Assembly: GCA_963813815.1 (NCBI GenBank)
Contig: CAWFAD010000010.1
Coordinates: 32,001-96,000, forward strand
Source of the DNA: an uncultured bacterium
GTDB lineage: Bacteria; Krumholzibacteriota; Krumholzibacteriia; Krumholzibacteriales; Krumholzibacteriaceae
Length of the DNA stretch: 64,000 bases
Direction of reading: 5' to 3'
Every line of letters starts with the position of its first letter. Position 1 is the stretch's first letter. Under the pieces are notes generated by a model, which saw only the letters and a program-made list of their open reading frames with translations, searched no databases and was not told the origin of the DNA. A program made the translations under genes and the position numbers. Below are positions 28,544 through 36,089 of this stretch, piece after piece.

Positions 28544-30142
28544 ATGATGGATCGCGTCGAACGGCAGGAAGAGGTCGTGCGGGTGCGTTTCGCCCCGAGT
28601 CCGACGGGGCACCTCCACGTGGGGGGCGCCCGCACGGCGCTCTACAACTTTCTCTACGCGCGCAGAAACGGCGGGGTCTTCGTGCTGCGCATCGAGGACA
28701 CCGACGCGGCTCGATCGACCCGCGAATCGTACGAGGGGATTCTCCGCGGCATGCGCTGGCTCGGGCTCGAGTGGGACGAAGGGCCCGATATCGACGGCCC
28801 GTACGGCCCGTACGTGCAGTCGGCGCGGAGCGTGCTCTATCACAACGAGGCCGATCGCCTGCTGCGGGAGGGAAATGCCTACCGCTGCTTTTGCACGCCC
28901 GGGGAGATCGAGGCGATGCGCGCCGCGCAGGAGGCGGGGGGAGAGCCGCCGAAGTACAACGGACGCTGCCGCTCCCTCTCCGCGGCCGAAATCGAGGAGA
29001 AGCTCGGCCGGGGAGCTCCGCACGTCGTCCGGTTCATGATGCCGGTCGAGGGGCAGACGCGGTTCCGGGACGTGATCCGCGGCGATTTTTCGTTCGACAA
29101 CGCCGGACTCGACGATTTCGTCCTCATCAAGTCGGACGGGCGGCCGACCTACAATTACGCCGTCGTCGTCGACGACGCGCACATGCGCATCAGCCACGTC
29201 ATCCGCGGCGACGACCACATCTCGAACACGCCGCGCCAGGTGCGCCTCTACGAGGCTCTCGGGTACAAGCTGCCCAAGTTCGCCCACCTGCCGATGATTC
29301 TCGGCGCCGACCGGACGCGCCTCAGCAAACGCCACGGCGCGACGTCGATCGACGCCTACCGGGACCTCCACTACCTCAGCGATGCCATGGCCAACTACCT
29401 CGCGCTTCTCGGCTGGTCGTTCGACGGCAAGCGCGAGCTCTTCACGTTCAAGGCGCTCGTCGACGCCTTCTCGCTCAAACGGGTGTCGAGCAATCCGGCC
29501 GTGTTCGACGTGGGCAAGATGGAGTGGATCAACGCCGAGCATTTCAAGCTGCTGCCTCCGGCGGAGAAGCTGAGACTCGTGTGCGACGTGCTCGTGGAGG
29601 AGAAGCTCCTCCCGCCGGCATTCGAGGTCGATCTCTCGCGCCCCGTGGATCTCAAGCTCGTCGCGGGAAAGGAGCCGCTCAAGATCGAGGCCGCCGACGC
29701 CGGGGAGAAGGCGTACGCCCGGGAGCTGCCGCGCCTCGCCCTCATCATCGATACGCTCGGCAACCGTCTCAAGCTCCTCCGCGAGGTCCGGGATCTCATG
29801 GGGTATTTCTACAGCGACGACTTTCCGCGGGACGAAACGGCCGTGCGGAACCATCTCGCCTCGAAGGAGGCGTCCGCGCGGCTCGCCTCTCTCGCCGGGG
29901 CGTTCGAGGAGCTTCGGTACTTCGATCGCGCCTCGGTCGAGGAGACGCTCCGCGGACTCGCCGAGCGGCTCGGAGTCGAGGCCGGGGAGCTCATCCATCC
30001 CTGCCGCGTGGCCCTGACCGGCAGGACCGTATCCCCCGATATTTTCTGGGTGATCGTGCTCCTCGGCAAGGCGAAAACGATCGAGCGGCTGCGCGTCGCC
30101 TCGGGGGTCGGCTCCGCGCCGCCGGCCCCGAAAAACGATTGA
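28544..30142 (+). CDS. gltX: Glutamate--tRNA ligase
   Basis: RFAPSPTGHLHVGG, RIEDTD, IRGDDH and RLSKR motifs. Confidence 0.97.
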   Translation: MMDRVERQEEVVRVRFAPSPTGHLHVGGARTALYNFLYARRNGGVFVLRIEDTDAARSTRESYEGILRGMRWLGLEWDEGPDIDGPYGPYVQSARSVLYHNEADRLLREGNAYRCFCTPGEIEAMRAAQEAGGEPPKYNGRCRSLSAAEIEEKLGRGAPHVVRFMMPVEGQTRFRDVIRGDFSFDNAGLDDFVLIKSDGRPTYNYAVVVDDAHMRISHVIRGDDHISNTPRQVRLYEALGYKLPKFAHLPMILGADRTRLSKRHGATSIDAYRDLHYLSDAMANYLALLGWSFDGKRELFTFKALVDAFSLKRVSSNPAVFDVGKMEWINAEHFKLLPPAEKLRLVCDVLVEEKLLPPAFEVDLSRPVDLKLVAGKEPLKIEAADAGEKAYARELPRLALIIDTLGNRLKLLREVRDLMGYFYSDDFPRDETAVRNHLASKEASARLASLAGAFEELRYFDRASVEETLRGLAERLGVEAGELIHPCRVALTGRTVSPDIFWVIVLLGKAKTIERLRVASGVGSAPPAPKND

Positions 30143-30359: not shown

Positions 30360-30404
30360 GAAATAGGAAACCCGCCAGGCGCCGAGCCCGCGGGTTTCAA
30401 TGAT

Positions 30405-30447
30405 AAAGCCCGGGGTCGCGCCTCGCTGCACCCCGGGCTTTTCGTTT
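30405..30447. terminator. Probable bidirectional intrinsic terminator between the tRNAs and the convergent ArsR operon
   Basis: 12-bp stem AAAGCCCGGGGT...ACCCCGGGCTTT followed by TCGTTT. A second hairpin, GAAACCCGC/GCGGGTTTC, lies at 30367-30398. Confidence 0.7.
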
Positions 30448-30465
30448 CGAGCGGCGACCGCCGCG

Positions 30466-30657
30466 TCAGCAGCCCGCTCAGGTGGGGCCGCAGGAGGAGC
30501 CGCCCGAGCACCCGCCGCACGACTTGGCCACGGCCGAGATGAGCTTCTCGAGATCGGTCGATGCGCAGGAGGGGCAACTGACCTCCTGCGACGCCCTCAT
30601 GACGAGCTCCTCGAACAGCGCGCCGCATTTCCCGCATCGATATTCGAATATCGGCAT
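30466..30657 (-). CDS. FmdB-family zinc-ribbon protein, candidate selenoprotein (59 aa to TGA 30478-30480; 63 aa if read through)
   Basis: Not in the ORF track. MPIFEYRCGKCGALFEELVMRASQEVSCPSCASTDLEKLISAVAKSCGGCSGGSSCGPT-[TGA]-AGC-TGA. The gene is secure; the Sec readthrough is inferred. Confidence 0.85.
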
Positions 30658-30662
30658 GACGC

Positions 30663-30872
30663 CTACTTTTTTTGTTCCGGGCTCTCGTCCGGCCGCGCGC
30701 CGGGATCCGCCCCTTTCTTCTGATGCGCCGCATCCTTCGATCGGTCCCCGATCGAGCAGGCCGACGACATTCAGGTGGGCACGCCGAGGCGCGGCAGAAT
30801 GAAGAACATGAGCACGAACCAGATGGCGACAAAGAGGAGCAGCTTGACCACGTCGTTCATCCCCCGTTTCAT
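30663..30872 (-). CDS. Small single-TM protein, candidate selenoprotein with a U-x-x-x-C motif (69 aa with readthrough)
   Basis: MKRGMNDVVKLLLFVAIWFVLMFFILPRLGVPT-[TGA 30771-30773]-MSSACSIGDRSKDAAHQKKGADPGARPDESPEQKK-TAG. ATGA overlap with the arsR stop; the readthrough stop ends 5 nt before the next ATG. Confidence 0.7.
30723..30770 (-). promoter_or_regulatory. Candidate bacterial SECIS hairpin
   Basis: Immediately 3' of the TGA: perfect TCGATCGG-GGA-CCGATCGA upper stem (30737-30755) with a G-rich loop about 22-23 nt from the TGA, on lower pairings CCT/AGG and ATG.CGTCG/CGGCG.CAT. Confidence 0.6.
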
Positions 30873-31231
30873 CGTTTCGTACGTCCGGCGGGCGCGCCGC
30901 GCCGGGTTTTGCCGGACGGTTTCCGTTCGAGCGTCGCGCAGATCATGTCGCATATATCCTCGGGCAGAGCGCTGCTCAGCCGGTAGCGCACGTTCCGGCG
31001 GTCCCTCCGCGAGGCTACGAGCCCCTCGTCCCGGAGCACGCGCAGGTGCTTCGAAACGTTCGCCTGCGCGAGCCCCGTCTCGGCGACGAGCGCGGTGACG
31101 CTCCGCTCCCCCTCGCAGAGGCTTCGCAGCACGGAGAGGCGCGACGCGTCGGCCATCGCCTTGAGCCGTCTCGCGACGAGCTCGAGGGCCGGCGCGTCGA
31201 TCGAAAGCAGCGTATGCGCGGTTCCCTTCAT
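30869..31231 (-). CDS. ArsR/SmtB family transcriptional repressor
   Basis: LKAMADASRLSVLRSL..ERSVTALV..GLAQANVSKHLRVLRDEGLV; C-terminal ICDMIC. Confidence 0.92.
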   Translation of the reverse strand: MKGTAHTLLSIDAPALELVARRLKAMADASRLSVLRSLCEGERSVTALVAETGLAQANVSKHLRVLRDEGLVASRRDRRNVRYRLSSALPEDICDMICATLERKPSGKTRRGAPAGRTKR

Positions 31232-31259
31232 ATTCCTATATACTCATATAATAATATGT
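31229..31259. promoter_or_regulatory. AT-rich inverted repeat, candidate ArsR operator
   Basis: CATATT-cctatatactcatatat-AATATG overlaps the arsR start and RBS in an otherwise very GC-rich region. Confidence 0.45.
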
Positions 31260-31302
31260 GACCGGCGTCAAGGGGAAAGCGTCGCGCGCCGGCGGGAGAG
31301 GG

Positions 31303-33018
31303 CTAGGAAACGAGCAGCGTCGAGACGATGATCTGCGCGAGGAGGATCTTCGCGATCATCGAGGCGGGATAGACGGCGGCGTAGTAGACGTTCGGCAGCT
31401 CGTTGCCGGCCTGCTGGTTCGCGTAGGCGAGCACGGCGGGCTGCGTGTGCATGCCGGAGACCACGCCCATCACCGCGGAGAGCGGGAGCCGGAAGATCTT
31501 CGAGCAAACGACGACCGCCGCCACCGTCACGAAGGTCGTGATCGCCGCTCCGGCCGCGATGAGCCCCCAGCCGCCCGATTGGAAGGTGGCCCCGAAGCCT
31601 TCCCCCGCCTTGGTTCCGATCCCCGCGAGGAAGAAAACGAGCCCGACCTGCCGGATGACGAGGTTCGCCGCGAAGGGAAGCCCCCAGATCACGGGTCCCG
31701 TTCGCTCGAGCTTGCCGAGGATGAGCCCCACGAGCAGCGGGCCGCCCGCGAAGCCGAGCCGGAACATCATGCCGTTCGGCAGAGGGAGGGCGATCATGCC
31801 GAGGAACACGCCGAGCACGATGCCGATGGAGAGCGAGAGGTAATCGGTCTCGGAGATCGAGCGGAGCGAATCGCCGAAAAAGCGGGAAATCGTCTCGATG
31901 TTCTCGCGTTTCGTGACGACGCGGATGCGGTCGCCCGACTCGAGGATCGTATCGGGACCGGGCACGAAGTCGACGTCGCCGCGGCGCAGCCGCGTGATCG
32001 TCGCGTCGAAGATCGTGTGGAGCCGCAGCTCCCGGATCGTCCTGCCGATCACGTTCTTGCTCGAGACGAAGATGCGCCGGTAGGTGACCTCCCCCGACGT
32101 TTCCGGAAGATGCTCGGCGCTCCGCTCGCCGAAGAGTATGCGCGCTCTCTCGAGCGTCTCATCCGTTCCGACGGCGACGACGAGGTTGCCGCTCTCGAGC
32201 AAGGTGTCCCCGAGAACCACCGATATCGAGCCGCCCTTCTGTATGCGGCTCAGGACGAAGCCCGGATCGCCGAGCGCGGTGAGCGCCTCAGCGACCGTTT
32301 TTCCGGCGGCGGCGGGATTCGTGATGCGGAAGGTTGCGCTCCGGACGGCGGCCGCGCCCGATTCCCGGAGATACTCCGCGGCCTCCTTCGCGAAATCGGC
32401 GCGGAAGATCTTCGTGAAAACGAAAAGCCAGAGGATCACGCCGAGCACGCCGAAAGGATACGCGAGACCGTACGTGACGACGGGGCTTTCGAGGTAGAGA
32501 TCGACGAGGGAGGGATCGATCGCGCTCCTCATGTTCTCGATCGTCTCGACGGTGGCGGCGAGCGCGGGAGTGTTCGTGAGCGCGCCGCAGAAAAGCCCCG
32601 CCGCGCTCGGCGCGGGGAGCGAAAGCGCGTATTTCAGAATGACGGTCGTCCCGGCGGCGGCGGCGAGCACGATGACCGCGGCTATGTTGAGTCCGAGCAC
32701 CCGCTTGCGGAAGGAGGCGAAGAAGCCGGGGCCGGCCTGAAGGCCGATCGCGTAGACGAAGAGCACGAGCCCTATAACATATATATAGTCGGGAAGGGCG
32801 AGACGCGCGTCGAAGGCGCTCAGGCCGATTCCGACGAAAAGGACCGCGGCCACGCCGAGGCTGAATCCGAAAATCTTAATGTTTCCAATGAGATAGCCGA
32901 GACCTATCACCGTGAAGAGCAGCAGTATCGGACTGGAGGCGAGCACGTCGGCGAGCCCCCGGGCGGCGCCCGAGAGAACGGCGAAGGTGACGAGCGTATC
33001 GGTCAAGGGGAACCTCAA
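31303..33018 (-). CDS. AspT/YidE/YbjL aspartate:alanine exchanger family transporter with TrkA-C domains
   Basis: LGVAAVLFVG, GLVLFVYAIGLQAGPGFF, GALTNTPALA, two RCK_C domains and AGGPLLVGLILG. Confidence 0.92.
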   Translation of the reverse strand: MRFPLTDTLVTFAVLSGAARGLADVLASSPILLLFTVIGLGYLIGNIKIFGFSLGVAAVLFVGIGLSAFDARLALPDYIYVIGLVLFVYAIGLQAGPGFFASFRKRVLGLNIAAVIVLAAAAGTTVILKYALSLPAPSAAGLFCGALTNTPALAATVETIENMRSAIDPSLVDLYLESPVVTYGLAYPFGVLGVILWLFVFTKIFRADFAKEAAEYLRESGAAAVRSATFRITNPAAAGKTVAEALTALGDPGFVLSRIQKGGSISVVLGDTLLESGNLVVAVGTDETLERARILFGERSAEHLPETSGEVTYRRIFVSSKNVIGRTIRELRLHTIFDATITRLRRGDVDFVPGPDTILESGDRIRVVTKRENIETISRFFGDSLRSISETDYLSLSIGIVLGVFLGMIALPLPNGMMFRLGFAGGPLLVGLILGKLERTGPVIWGLPFAANLVIRQVGLVFFLAGIGTKAGEGFGATFQSGGWGLIAAGAAITTFVTVAAVVVCSKIFRLPLSAVMGVVSGMHTQPAVLAYANQQAGNELPNVYYAAVYPASMIAKILLAQIIVSTLLVS

Positions 33019-33141: not shown

Positions 33142-35091
33142 TTACGCCGCCGGCGGCGGCCCGTCGGGGCTCCGTCCGAGGAGGTAGAGAGCCGCGCCGA
33201 CGGTCGCCGCGCCGAGCGCGAGCGATGCGGCGGCGGAGAGGCCGAAGGCGAGGGGCAGGTATCCGCAGAGAACGGCGGCGCCCGCGGCGGTCAAGGCGTA
33301 GGGAAGCTGCGTGCGCACGTGGTCGACGTGATCGCAGGCGGATGCCATCGAGGACATGATTGTCGTGTCGGAGATGGGCGAGCAATGGTCGCCGAAAACG
33401 GACCCGCCGAGAATCGCCCCGATCGAACCCGAGAGAATCGCGTCGAGCGCGCTTCCGGAGATCGCGGCCGCCTTCGAGGCGCCGAAGACGAGCGGCACGA
33501 CGATCGGGGTGAGGATCGACATGGTGCCCCAGGACGTGCCCGTCGAAAACGATATCGCCATCGCGACGAGGAAGACGACGAGCGGGAGGAAGCGCGGATC
33601 GAGAACCCCGGAAAGCAGATGCACGAGATAATCCGCGGTATGGAGCTCGGTGCACACGGAGCCGATGCACCACGCGAGCACAAGGATGACGATGGCGATG
33701 AGCATCGAACGGATGCCGTTCATCCAGGCGGCTACCGTCTCGGTGAGGGTGAGCAGGCGTTGAACGAGGGCGAGGACCGCCGCCGACAGGCAGCCCGCCA
33801 TCGAGCACCACAAGAGCGCGACAAAGGAGTCGGCCTCCCTGAGGGCGGCGAGCAGCCCGCCCGGCTCGCCGCGCGCCGCGAGCGCCTCGCGCCCCGTGAC
33901 CACGAGCCCGGCGAAGGCGACCGCGATGACGACGGCGATGGGAACGAGCCCGTTGATCCAGCGCGGCCGCGCCGAGGCCGCCGGCGCCGCGCTCTCGGCG
34001 TCGATGTTCGAGAGGAGCACCGCGCCGTCGGCGGACGTTTTGCCCGTCGAGCGCGCGCGCCGCTCGGCGGAGAGCATCGGGCCGAAATCGCGGTTCATGA
34101 GCGCGACGAGGAGCACGAGGAGAACGGCGAAGATCGAGTAGTAGGAGTACGGTATGGCGGCGACGAAGGCGGCGAAGGGGTTCCGGTCGACTCCGATCGA
34201 GGCGAACGATTGCCCGAGGAGCGACACCTGAAATCCGATCCAGCTCGTGATCACCGCGATCGAGGTGACGGGGGCGGCCGTCGAGTCGACGATGTAGGAG
34301 AGCTTTTCCCGCGAGATGCGGAGACGGTCCGTGAGCGGACGCATCGAGTTTCCGACGATGAGCGTGTTCGCGTAGTCGTCGAAGAAGATCACGACCCCCA
34401 TGAGCCAGGCGGCGAACTGCCCCCGCCGAGGCGTCGTGGCGAGGCGCGAGACGCGGTCGACGATCCCCTGCATGCCCCCCATGCGGTACATGATGCCGAC
34501 CATGCCGCCGAGGAGCAGCGTAAAGACGATGATCGAGGCGTGATCGCTCCCCTGCGCGGGGTCGGAGAGAGTTTTGATCGCGTCGCGATCGACGATCCTG
34601 AGCAGCGCGGCGAGCGGGCGATACCCCTCGAGAAAGAAGTTGCCGAGCCAGACGCCGGAGAGAAGCGCGAGCACCACCTGCCGGAAAACGAGCGCGATGA
34701 CGATCGCGATGAGCGGGGGCAGGATCGAGAACCAGGCGGGAACGGCGAATATCTCTTCGCGGAGAGTCTCCCCGCCGACCGCGAGGGCGATTTCGTGGCG
34801 GCCCGCGCTGGGGAGCGTCACGGCGACGGCTTCGCCCGGATGGGGCGGGACGCCCCGGTACAGGATCTCTCCGTCGAGCAGGACGACGAGGGAGTCGCCG
34901 GGGGCGTGCGGAACGTCCCCGGGCGGCTCGTAGCGGTAGGGTATGCCGGCGAGCGCCGTGCGCCGGTTTCCGGCGTCCGCCGCGGAAGCCGCTCGATCCG
35001 GGAGAAGGGAGCAGGCGAGAACGGCGGCAAAAAGGATGATGGCGGGGGCTCCGGCGCGTTTCTTGGCGGATGCGGTCACTGGCGCCGTCAT
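33142..35091 (-). CDS. Na+/H+ antiporter NhaC-family transporter with N-terminal extracytoplasmic extension
   Basis: IFFDDYAN, SREKLSYIVDSTAAP, FSTGTSWGT and GDHCSPISDTTIMSS motifs. ATGA-coupled to the upstream gene. Confidence 0.9.
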   Translation of the reverse strand: MTAPVTASAKKRAGAPAIILFAAVLACSLLPDRAASAADAGNRRTALAGIPYRYEPPGDVPHAPGDSLVVLLDGEILYRGVPPHPGEAVAVTLPSAGRHEIALAVGGETLREEIFAVPAWFSILPPLIAIVIALVFRQVVLALLSGVWLGNFFLEGYRPLAALLRIVDRDAIKTLSDPAQGSDHASIIVFTLLLGGMVGIMYRMGGMQGIVDRVSRLATTPRRGQFAAWLMGVVIFFDDYANTLIVGNSMRPLTDRLRISREKLSYIVDSTAAPVTSIAVITSWIGFQVSLLGQSFASIGVDRNPFAAFVAAIPYSYYSIFAVLLVLLVALMNRDFGPMLSAERRARSTGKTSADGAVLLSNIDAESAAPAASARPRWINGLVPIAVVIAVAFAGLVVTGREALAARGEPGGLLAALREADSFVALLWCSMAGCLSAAVLALVQRLLTLTETVAAWMNGIRSMLIAIVILVLAWCIGSVCTELHTADYLVHLLSGVLDPRFLPLVVFLVAMAISFSTGTSWGTMSILTPIVVPLVFGASKAAAISGSALDAILSGSIGAILGGSVFGDHCSPISDTTIMSSMASACDHVDHVRTQLPYALTAAGAAVLCGYLPLAFGLSAAASLALGAATVGAALYLLGRSPDGPPPAA

Positions 35092-36089
35092 CCGATCTCC
35101 CGCAGCGCGACCGTCGTGTCGCGTCCCGCCATCCGGGCGGCGGCGCGCACGTGCTCCCACGGCGAGTGTTTGTGGATCTCGGCGAAGAGGTCGTCGCGTC
35201 CCGATACTCTCGCGACGAGCTCGAGGGACGCGGCGTCGGCGGTGATCATGTCGGGCGCGCAGACGAATCCGATGTCCGGAGCGACGAGCGGTCCCGCGTT
35301 CGCGTCGCAGTCGCAGAGGCGGCTGATGTTCTTGAGGACGTTCACGGCGTACACCTTCTTGAACCGCGCGGCGGCGAGCACCGCCGCCTCGGCGAGAAGC
35401 TCGTCGAAGAGGCCCACCCTCGGCGCGATCGAACGTTCCGGGCAGACGAGAGCGCAGTTGCTGCAGCCGGGGCACCAGGTGACGCCGAAGCGCGGCCGGT
35501 CCCCCTCGAGGACGATGTTGCCCGTCGGGCATCGCTCGACGCAGGTCCCGCACCGCGTGCAGCCCTCGCCGTACACGGGCTCGCCCCCTTCGTGGATCGC
35601 GCCCTTCGTTTCCCTGGCGACGCATCCCATGCCGACGTTCTTGACGGCGCCTCCCATGCCGCACGCGACGTGTCCCTTGACGTGCGAGAGGAGCAGCACG
35701 CCGTCCGCCTCGATCGGATCCGAGGCGAGAAGAAAGGTCATCGCCGCGCCCGCGACCTCGACGTGTCGGTTCGAGACGGTCACGGGAGCGCCGAGGTTTC
35801 GTTCCGTGTAGCCGCGCGCGGCGGCGCTGAGAAGATATCCCTCGACGGTGTGGCGCGGGCTCGAGTAGACGACGGGCGTGTCGAACACGTACGGACGGCA
35901 GCCGATTCCCGCGAGACAGGCCGCGATGCGCCGCACGAAGGGCGCCTCGATGGAGAACGGATTGCCCGGCTCTCCCATGTGGATCTTGATCGCGACGCGA
36001 TCGTTTCGCGCGAACACTCGCGCGAGCGCGCCCTCGAGATACGAGAGAAGCGCGTCGTCGGAGGCGAGAAATGTCGCTTCGTGTTTCAT
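35088..36089 (-). CDS. DUF362-family protein with a 2x[4Fe-4S] ferredoxin domain
   Basis: VAIKIHMGEPGN, SHVKGH..GGAVKNVGMGC, CTRCGTCVERCP, CPGCSNCALVCP and CDC motifs. Confidence 0.85.
   Translation of the reverse strand: MKHEATFLASDDALLSYLEGALARVFARNDRVAIKIHMGEPGNPFSIEAPFVRRIAACLAGIGCRPYVFDTPVVYSSPRHTVEGYLLSAAARGYTERNLGAPVTVSNRHVEVAGAAMTFLLASDPIEADGVLLLSHVKGHVACGMGGAVKNVGMGCVARETKGAIHEGGEPVYGEGCTRCGTCVERCPTGNIVLEGDRPRFGVTWCPGCSNCALVCPERSIAPRVGLFDELLAEAAVLAAARFKKVYAVNVLKNISRLCDCDANAGPLVAPDIGFVCAPDMITADAASLELVARVSGRDDLFAEIHKHSPWEHVRAAARMAGRDTTVALREIG

Follow-up and report, generated by a model that had tools for sequence, protein, structure and literature searches.

We analyzed a 64,000-nt window of DNA from an uncultured Krumholzibacteriota bacterium (GenBank assembly GCA_963813815.1, contig CAWFAD010000010.1, positions 32,001 to 96,000 of the forward strand; coordinates below are positions in this window unless stated otherwise). 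On its minus strand, a micro open reading frame (micro-ORF, 30663..30872) with an in-frame TGA is, judging from sequence, very probably a genuine selenoprotein gene, the selenocysteine (Sec) form of an unnamed and widespread family of small membrane proteins. This reading follows from the combination of a UGA at a position where relatives have Cys, a covarying hairpin with a GG-starting loop at the standard distance downstream, and the presence of the Sec machinery in the genome.

The micro-ORF reads MKRG-MNDVVKLLLFVAIWFVLMFFILPRLGVPT up to the TGA at 30773-30771, continues through 35 open codons, MSSACSIGDRSKDAAHQKKGADPGARPDESPEQKK, and ends at a TAG (30665-30663). Two ATG codons are possible starts, one at 30872-30870 (69 codons) and one at 30860-30858 (65 codons), the single UGA being included in either count, and the latter corresponds in position to the start common to most other genera. 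The candidate Sec codon (30771..30773, minus strand) is residue 34 from the first ATG and residue 30 from the second. The product comprises one transmembrane (TM) helix, the segment LPRLGVPT-U-MSSA-C and a charged, disordered tail rich in K, E and D. The Cys codon of this segment (TGC, 30756..30758, minus strand), a near-invariant column in the alignment of TGA forms, would provide the putative resolving partner in a U-x4-C pair. An AF2 model built on the 44-row alignment described below has a helix at residues 2-24 (pLDDT ~89) and coil elsewhere, and the distribution of charges, with an acidic N-terminus and R/K past the helix, suggests an N-out/C-in topology. A first-pass annotation of this DNA had pointed to a single-TM reading frame with a TGA after LPRLGVPT and 35 open codons to a TAG, to a 113-nt gap if translation stopped at the TGA, and to an 8-bp stem with a GGA loop about 23 nt downstream; all are present as described, the frame on the minus strand, the gap, which would hold no gene, at 30770-30658 and the stem at 30755-30737.

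In both genome searches the TGA is conserved without exception. A six-frame search of 61 related genomes with the read-through protein as query (E<=1e-3) gave matches in 46 genomes, two of them false and 44 true homologues, whose genomes range from members of the genus to members of the wider class. Every one of the 44 has TGA at this column and then reads on in frame as U-[MLIVAG]-x(2-4)-C-x-x-G-D-R, followed by a K/E/D-rich tail. Two sequences without a stop at the column (G054 and G049) were considered as possible Cys forms and rejected; they are FliL-like proteins in which only the helix/LPRLG stretch is similar. The DNA pattern G-x-P-T-[TGA/TGC/TGT]-x4-C-x2-G-D-R was also run against 185,579 species, each represented by a single genome. 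Among the 94 matches, 81 have the TM helix and LP[RK]xxxPT, and all 81 have TGA at the column even though the pattern allowed Cys codons; the 13 matches without the helix (nine with TGC/TGT, four with TGA) were discarded as chance matches. No TAA, TAG or Cys codon occupies the column in the 44 relatives or the 81 pattern-found members, so that the TAA/TAG endings named by the first-pass annotation as the case against its proposal are absent. According to record titles, carriers of the TGA form belong to Krumholzibacteriota, Latescibacterota, Fibrobacteraceae, Geobacter/Desulfuromonadales, Terriglobales/Acidobacteriota and Desulfobacterales, and include the cultured Geobacter argillaceus ATCC BAA-1139 and Geobacter sp. 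OR-1.

The sequence past the TGA behaves as coding sequence. The Cys codon after the TGA is kept with synonymous use of TGC and TGT, and insertions and deletions always come in multiples of three. All 98 distinct loci have 18 or more open codons in this frame, whereas the +1 frame is shorter than 17 codons in 30 of them and the +2 frame in 57; in 54 of the 98 rows this openness is partly forced by the search pattern. The counter-case of a non-coding downstream region, also raised in the first-pass annotation, is thus contradicted by the conserved frame. The residue directly after U varies among M, L, I, V, A, G, R and T, which indicates that a start codon is not required there.

Relatives with Cys in place of Sec were abundant. 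We compared a profile of the 44 read-through proteins, with TGA written as C, with 1.84 billion representatives and obtained 897 proteins at E<=1e-3. The residue at the Sec column was parsed for the best 149 of these 897: it is Cys in 110, and also in one that the regular expression did not parse, Trp in 18 (including P0010, P0024, P0038 and P0041), Arg in three, Gly in two (P0007 and P0128), Ser in two and Leu in one, while 12 proteins end exactly at the ...T before the column. Some of the residues other than Cys (W, R, G, S and L) may come from TGA read under another genetic code, and others may be real substitutions; for the W and Gly forms, a gene caller using tables 4 or 25 on metagenome DNA could have produced the residue. 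The expected Cys-aligned homologues therefore exist, but with the spacing C-x4-C (U-x4-C) rather than the C-x3-C first proposed, and those database homologues that are truncated stop precisely after ...PT, with the TGA next, the outcome that the first-pass annotation had proposed to test for. The Cys forms share LPxxGxxT-C-M-S-G-x-C, with G, T and both Cys invariant in a 26-sequence alignment. The family as a whole consists of single-pass membrane proteins of about 50-90 aa, whose only conserved soluble feature is the juxtamembrane LPxxGxxT-[C/U]-M-S-G-x-C. In some metagenome contigs (L178:80-598 and L231:895-1422, both on the plus strand and both among the 22 Cys-form loci scanned against Pfam, and also L202) the helix and C-MSGx-C module is joined to a complete thioredoxin domain (PF00085, 108-110 bits), which links the motif to thiol-disulfide chemistry.

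The host genome, a 2.53-Mb draft of 16 contigs with 90.8% completeness, is equipped to make selenoproteins. It encodes tRNA-Sec (71.3 bits, cut-off 47; SeC(tca) by ARAGORN), SelA (506.3 bits, cut-off 267.9), SelB (353.1 bits, cut-off 242.25) and SelD (367.2 bits, above the curated cut-off). The selD gene (contig C10, 174414-175340, outside the window) carries its own in-frame TGA, in ...SCAG-U-AAK..., and is itself a selenoprotein gene. SelA was found in all 61 related genomes, in 60 of them above the cut-off, which fits the use of Sec throughout the clade and leaves no negative control within it.

The candidate selenocysteine insertion sequence (SECIS) is the hairpin TCGATCGG-GGA-CCGATCGA (30737..30755, minus strand), an 8-bp stem, of which 7 bp are conserved, closed by a GGA apical loop and overlapping the codons S-I-G-D-R-S. 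Its stem begins 15 nt and its loop 23 nt past the TGA. In bacterial SECIS elements the loop lies 16-37 nt from the UGA, is 3-14 nt long and has G in the first apical-loop positions; the hairpin agrees with this description in the distance of its loop and in its GG start. The first-pass annotation had placed the hairpin on an extended lower stem and had proposed examining its covariation. The lower stem forms in the single-sequence fold but is not conserved, the outermost pair being kept in 7 of 43 sequences, whereas compensatory changes in the hairpin itself were found in both alignments examined. In the alignment of the 44 relatives (A1), 82.3% of cells are paired, compared with 17.7-44.2% when the 3′ partner is slid, and 71 cells carry double-sided changes, compared with 3-24 in the slid controls. 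In the broader alignment (A5; 94 sequences, 91 distinct, from the 98 distinct loci, L064-L067 being left out because of indels), the corresponding values are 80.5% against 19.5-44.4% paired and 149 against 20-44 double-sided changes, and none of 500 shuffles attained the observed value. Four pairs vary in A5 (AU28/GC14/CG13, CG29/GC28/UA21, GC26/AU25/CG20 and CG33/UG33/UA22). The loop and the three innermost pairs were partly fixed by the search pattern; the covarying pairs were not. The significance of the hairpin thus derives from comparison with relatives and not from the fold of a single sequence. In a Fibrobacteraceae subgroup, the same hairpin is moved by 2 nt and has a GGU loop. A search of Rfam gave chance-level matches only for the hairpin, which says little as the Rfam content for bacterial SECIS models was not checked.

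The hairpin also leaves a trace in the protein. The G-D-R after the second Cys is conserved in the TGA forms only, and since the Cys forms lack it, both the G-D-R and the covariation of its flanking residues appear to be imposed by the RNA stem and not by protein function, which provides independent evidence for selection on the hairpin as RNA. At the protein level, the covariation around G-D-R (I..S, A..H, T..Y, V..H/R) arises entirely from base pairing in the SECIS stem.

Several observations weigh against the selenoprotein reading. Folded on its own, the 81-nt sequence does no better than random expectation (z -0.72), with equally good folds in 37 of 200 shuffles. Either ATG, at 30872 or at 30860, may be the true start, and a close relative has Ile at the position of the second start. 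The tail is poorly conserved, U-x4-C falls outside the classical UxxC/CxxU redox motifs, and the Sec column holds W, or in a few cases R, G, S or L, in some of the best 149 representatives, as listed above. In addition, the queries that gathered the homologues spanned the TGA, which favors in-frame conservation; variants with another stop or a Cys codon would nevertheless have shown, and none did.

These observations bear on four alternative explanations. The first is that the TGA is an ordinary stop, the product being a hydrophobic peptide of 29-33 aa and the hairpin a regulatory or stabilizing RNA in the spacer before fmdB. Gene callers do end the protein there (P0005 and P0006, and the 12 truncated proteins among the best 149), the single-sequence fold is unexceptional, and the G-D-R conservation is explicable by RNA. 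We nevertheless consider this explanation improbable: the 110 Cys-form relatives run continuously through the column, the Cys codon five codons on, the indels in threes and the open frame of all 98 loci persist beyond it, no member uses TAA or TAG, and the hairpin has the position and loop suited to a SECIS in a Sec-decoding genome.

A second explanation accepts translation past the UGA but attributes it to near-cognate suppression, by Trp or Cys, or to another recoding event instead of SelB-mediated Sec insertion. The 18 representatives with W at the column fit this, as does the apical loop, a minimal 3-nt GGA that differs from the E. coli fdhF loop. We give it very little credence, since TGA serves as the normal stop in neighboring genes such as arsR, SelA is present in all the relatives, a covarying hairpin at SECIS distance would have no role in suppression, and relatives have Cys, the usual counterpart of Sec, at the aligned position.

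Here, as in most close relatives, ATG directly follows the TGA (TGAATG), which would allow two small genes, a TM peptide ending at the TGA and a second peptide, MSSACSIGDR..., starting at the adjoining ATG by translational coupling. The chance of this is slim, as the next codon elsewhere is GCN (Ala), GGN (Gly), CGN/AGA (Arg), ACT (Thr) or ATA (Ile), none accepted as a start, and the Cys forms are single polypeptides in which the Met is internal and conserved (C-M-S-G-x-C). Decay of the gene or an assembly error turning a Cys codon (TGC/TGT) into TGA, conceivable in a metagenome-derived draft of 16 contigs and 90.8% completeness, is effectively refuted by the same TGA in 98 distinct loci from several phyla and by a Cys codon in none of the 81 pattern-found members.

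The putative selenoprotein gene is the middle gene of a three-gene operon on the minus strand, in the order arsR, micro-ORF and a gene for an FmdB-family zinc ribbon. The first gene, arsR (30869..31231), encodes a helix-turn-helix repressor of the ArsR/SmtB family (NF033788, 77.1 bits, cut-off 55; PF01022, E 6.8e-14), and its TGA stop shares bases with the first ATG of the micro-ORF as ATGA (30872-30869). The ArsR product scored 51.7 bits against the BigR equivalog, a persulfide/sulfite-sensing ArsR subgroup with a cut-off of 155. It shows a BigR-like trait, one Cys in the N-terminal third and two near the C-terminus, which we regard as a lead only. Directly upstream of arsR, an AT-rich stretch (31232-31262, CACATATTATTATATGAGTATATAGGAAT) stands out from GC-rich surroundings and is likely the promoter/operator of the operon; a promoter scan of the region returned a single promoter-like site, on the wrong strand. 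The FmdB gene (30466..30657; TIGR02605, 58.6 bits, cut-off 31.3; PF09723, 54.3 bits, cut-off 34.4) starts at 30657, five bases past the TAG of the micro-ORF. The operon ends in a terminator-like hairpin, GCCCGGGG...CCCCGGGC followed by TTTAT (30403..30438, minus strand), which was read directly from the sequence and was missed by a consensus terminator scan because of its long loop. This end faces tRNA-Glu, tRNA-Gln and gltX on the other strand. The flanking genes, namely those for glutamyl-tRNA synthetase (28544-30142, plus strand), an Asp-Al_Ex/TrkA_C permease (31303-33018, minus strand) and a Na_H_antiporter family protein (33142-35664, minus strand), are unrelated housekeeping and transport genes, and the three-gene operon therefore stands alone.

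Sequence comparison further suggests that the FmdB neighbor is itself a selenoprotein, with a C-terminal Sec, which we think somewhat likely. The ribbon, CxxC-x17-CxxC (C-GK-C ... C-PS-C), has ordinary Cys codons at all four positions. The annotated stop is a TGA (30480-30478), after which the frame encodes AGC and reaches a second TGA (30468-30466), giving a candidate C-terminus ...CGPT-U-AGC. In all 43 relatives in which an FmdB gene was detected, and in all 47 complete copies at the pattern-found loci (a count that omits one frameshifted gene and two cut by contig ends), the frame first closes at a TGA. This TGA comes after ...G-[FGP]-[GTS] and is followed by one to four codons (AGC/GGC, SPF, NPFR, GPRW, AH, AR, AS and others) before the second stop. 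With Sec so close to the true stop, the SECIS would have to come after the stop codon. A candidate for this second SECIS, GCGGC-GGUC-GCCGC (30451..30464, minus strand), lies 14 nt after the TGA and past the final stop; its loop has the same letters, GGUC, as the E. coli fdhF loop. A hairpin with the core CGGCGGUC(C)GCCG recurs 18-23 nt from the FmdB TGA in 27 sequences, from Krumholzibacteriota- and Latescibacterota-type loci and including the window. Across these 27 sequences, 86.4% of cells are paired, compared with 26.4-52.8% in the slid controls, and covariation is seen in the two outer pairs (GC16/AU4/GU3/CG2/UA1 and AU10/CG4/GC3/GU2/UA1).

Database homologues of the FmdB protein all end just before the TGA, and word-indexed searches found no homologue with Cys aligned to this C-terminal TGA. 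The extension is only one to four codons long. More distant FmdB proteins have Cys-rich tails ending in C-x-x-C-x, which may correspond to the candidate Sec tail. FmdB-family selenoproteins are known from the GOS metagenome, where Sec replaces a Cys of the ribbon CxxC (PMC2398784), and later reviews enter them as UxxU/CxxU (PMC13188914, PMC9312934). The present neighbor resembles them in having an FmdB/TIGR02605 ribbon in a Sec-using organism but differs in that all ribbon Cys are Cys, the candidate Sec lies in the tail (...G-[FGP]-[GTS]-U-x(1-4)) and the hairpin lies past the final stop. Among names given in Table 1 of PMC13188914, the UXX-star and KCU-star selenoproteins likewise have Sec a few residues from the C-terminus. 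In the FmdB neighbor, Sec would lie one to four residues before the true stop, some relatives reading G-F-G-U-x-x-stop, and its zinc-ribbon domain sets it apart from both. UXX-star-type models (NF041114, NF041211 and NF033934) gave no match to the neighbor at E<=10, and neither did NF041197, the model of a dual CXXC small selenoprotein.

We examined gene neighborhoods in 81 pattern-found loci of the Sec form, with 700-nt flanks, and in 80 metagenome loci of the Cys form, for 22 of which the ORFs were scanned against Pfam. Of the 81 Sec-form loci, 52 have an FmdB gene in the 700-nt flanks and 29 have an ArsR-like gene upstream; other neighbors encode YgaP-like TM, C_GCAxxG_C_C, Trx-like, MBL-fold, methyltransferase and PilZ proteins. 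Near the Cys forms, by contrast, neither a regular expression nor tblastn with five FmdB queries found an FmdB gene in any of the 80 loci. The two forms share the helix and LPxxGxxT-C-MSGx-C and, in some loci, a nearby ArsR-family regulator (L178, L188 and L228 for the Cys forms); the Cys forms differ in having Cys for Sec, no G-D-R imposed by a hairpin and no FmdB neighbor. The occurrence of FmdB with Sec forms and never with Cys forms fits a selenium-dependent partnership, although phylogeny confounds the contrast.

Several Cys-form loci place the gene among genes of sulfur and thiol chemistry. Three of them (L165, L167 and L188) have the order ArsR, rhodanese+YgaP_TM, thioredoxin, MBL+rhodanese, micro-protein and TauE, in some cases followed by Pyr_redox_2, in which the MBL+rhodanese protein would be persulfide-dioxygenase-like and TauE a predicted sulfite exporter. 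We take this order to resemble that of sulfide/persulfide detoxification operons under BigR/SqrR-type repressors. In L183, the micro-protein gene lies between thioredoxin and DsbD_TM+Trx, and in L218 and L232 it precedes a pyridine-nucleotide disulfide reductase, one with a rhodanese domain. At several further loci, a zf-HC2 anti-sigma factor precedes the micro-protein gene or a YgaP-like TM protein follows it. From these neighborhoods, the sole source of our functional reading, we consider it slightly better than an even chance that the protein acts as a membrane-tethered site for selenenylsulfide/dithiol redox chemistry or for the hand-off of sulfane sulfur, possibly of selenium or a metalloid. 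The neighborhoods differ by lineage (Acidobacteriota have PilZ, for example, and one Geobacter has a methyltransferase), which speaks against this assignment.

The proposed mechanism would begin with transcription of the gene under an ArsR/SmtB-type repressor. SelB.GTP.Sec-tRNA(Sec) would bind the hairpin while the ribosome reaches the UGA, and Sec would be inserted, giving a product of 65-69 aa in which an N-terminal TM helix precedes the selenol/thiol pair U-x4-C. The positive-inside rule would place this pair at the cytoplasmic face of the membrane, followed by the disordered K/E/D-rich tail. In the Krumholzibacteriota lineage, the co-transcribed FmdB protein may end in Sec and act as a soluble partner. 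A bolder and tentative proposal, which we consider rather unlikely as a whole, is that the operon encodes two paired selenoproteins, the membrane U-x4-C micro-protein and a soluble zinc ribbon ending in ...G-x-x-U-x(1-4) with its SECIS past the final stop, which would together form an intermolecular selenenylsulfide/diselenide relay (for sulfane-sulfur, selenium or metalloid hand-off, or as a membrane redox switch) with an ArsR-type sensor above it.

The micro-protein matched no family in Pfam-A (E<=1) or NCBIfam r20 (E<=10, including the NF04xxxx selenoprotein models), and 20 Cys forms gave only sub-threshold chance matches to Pfam and NCBIfam. In the ESM Atlas, a stored homologue of the Cys form (P0017) belongs to a cluster named 'hypothetical protein' with Planctomycetota as the commonest phylum (score 0.86), which is a lead only. 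Among selenoproteins of eukaryotes, SELENOK and SELENOS are short single-pass proteins of the ER membrane in which a TM helix at the N-terminus is followed by a disordered, charged tail in the cytosol; Sec sits in this tail, at the very C-terminal end, and its decoding relies on a 3′-UTR SECIS with SBP2/eEFSec. The micro-protein is like them in architecture alone, with no sequence kinship expected, and differs in having Sec directly past the helix and a bacterial SECIS within the coding region.

Table 1 of a 2026 review of the prokaryotic selenoproteome lists 119 families, none of them resembling this one (PMC13188914), in line with the first-pass annotation, which could assign the protein to no named selenoprotein family. 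The available passages of a 2022 review (PMC9312934), the GOS study (PMC2398784), deep-Sep (PMC12013277) and BSepDB (PMC13326102) likewise do not mention one, although a listing in the supplementary material of deep-Sep or BSepDB remains possible; the word 'membrane' occurs 0 times in the passages of PMC12013277 and PMC13326102. We found no literature pairing a selenoprotein with Krumholzibacteriota. Compared with genes decoded through SelB and SECIS (fdhF, selD and the 119 families of PMC13188914), the micro-ORF is alike in its in-frame UGA, its coding-region hairpin with a G-starting loop at 23 nt, its Cys homologues and the full selA/selB/selC/selD set of its genome. The micro-protein differs in being unlisted, far smaller than most, anchored in the membrane and without a globular domain, and in its U-x4-C motif. 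The family is thus new to the selenoprotein catalogues consulted, unusually small, membrane-bound and widespread, while its recoding mechanism is the standard bacterial one.

These findings add a widely distributed family to a catalogue of about 119 selenoprotein families. A membrane anchor of roughly 65 aa without a globular domain falls below annotation thresholds, and every database copy examined was cut at the UGA. The gene also shows plainly how an RNA structure can give a protein the look of amino-acid conservation and covariation (x-x-G-D-R-x), and it points to a likely second selenoprotein next door whose SECIS would follow the stop codon. The cultivated Geobacter carriers make a bench test feasible. 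For the family as a whole, in which many of the Cys forms inspected lie in sulfide, persulfide or thiol-redox operons, the analysis proposes [C/U]-x4-C, at the face of the membrane, as an active site open to testing in at least 897 small proteins now annotated as 'hypothetical'.

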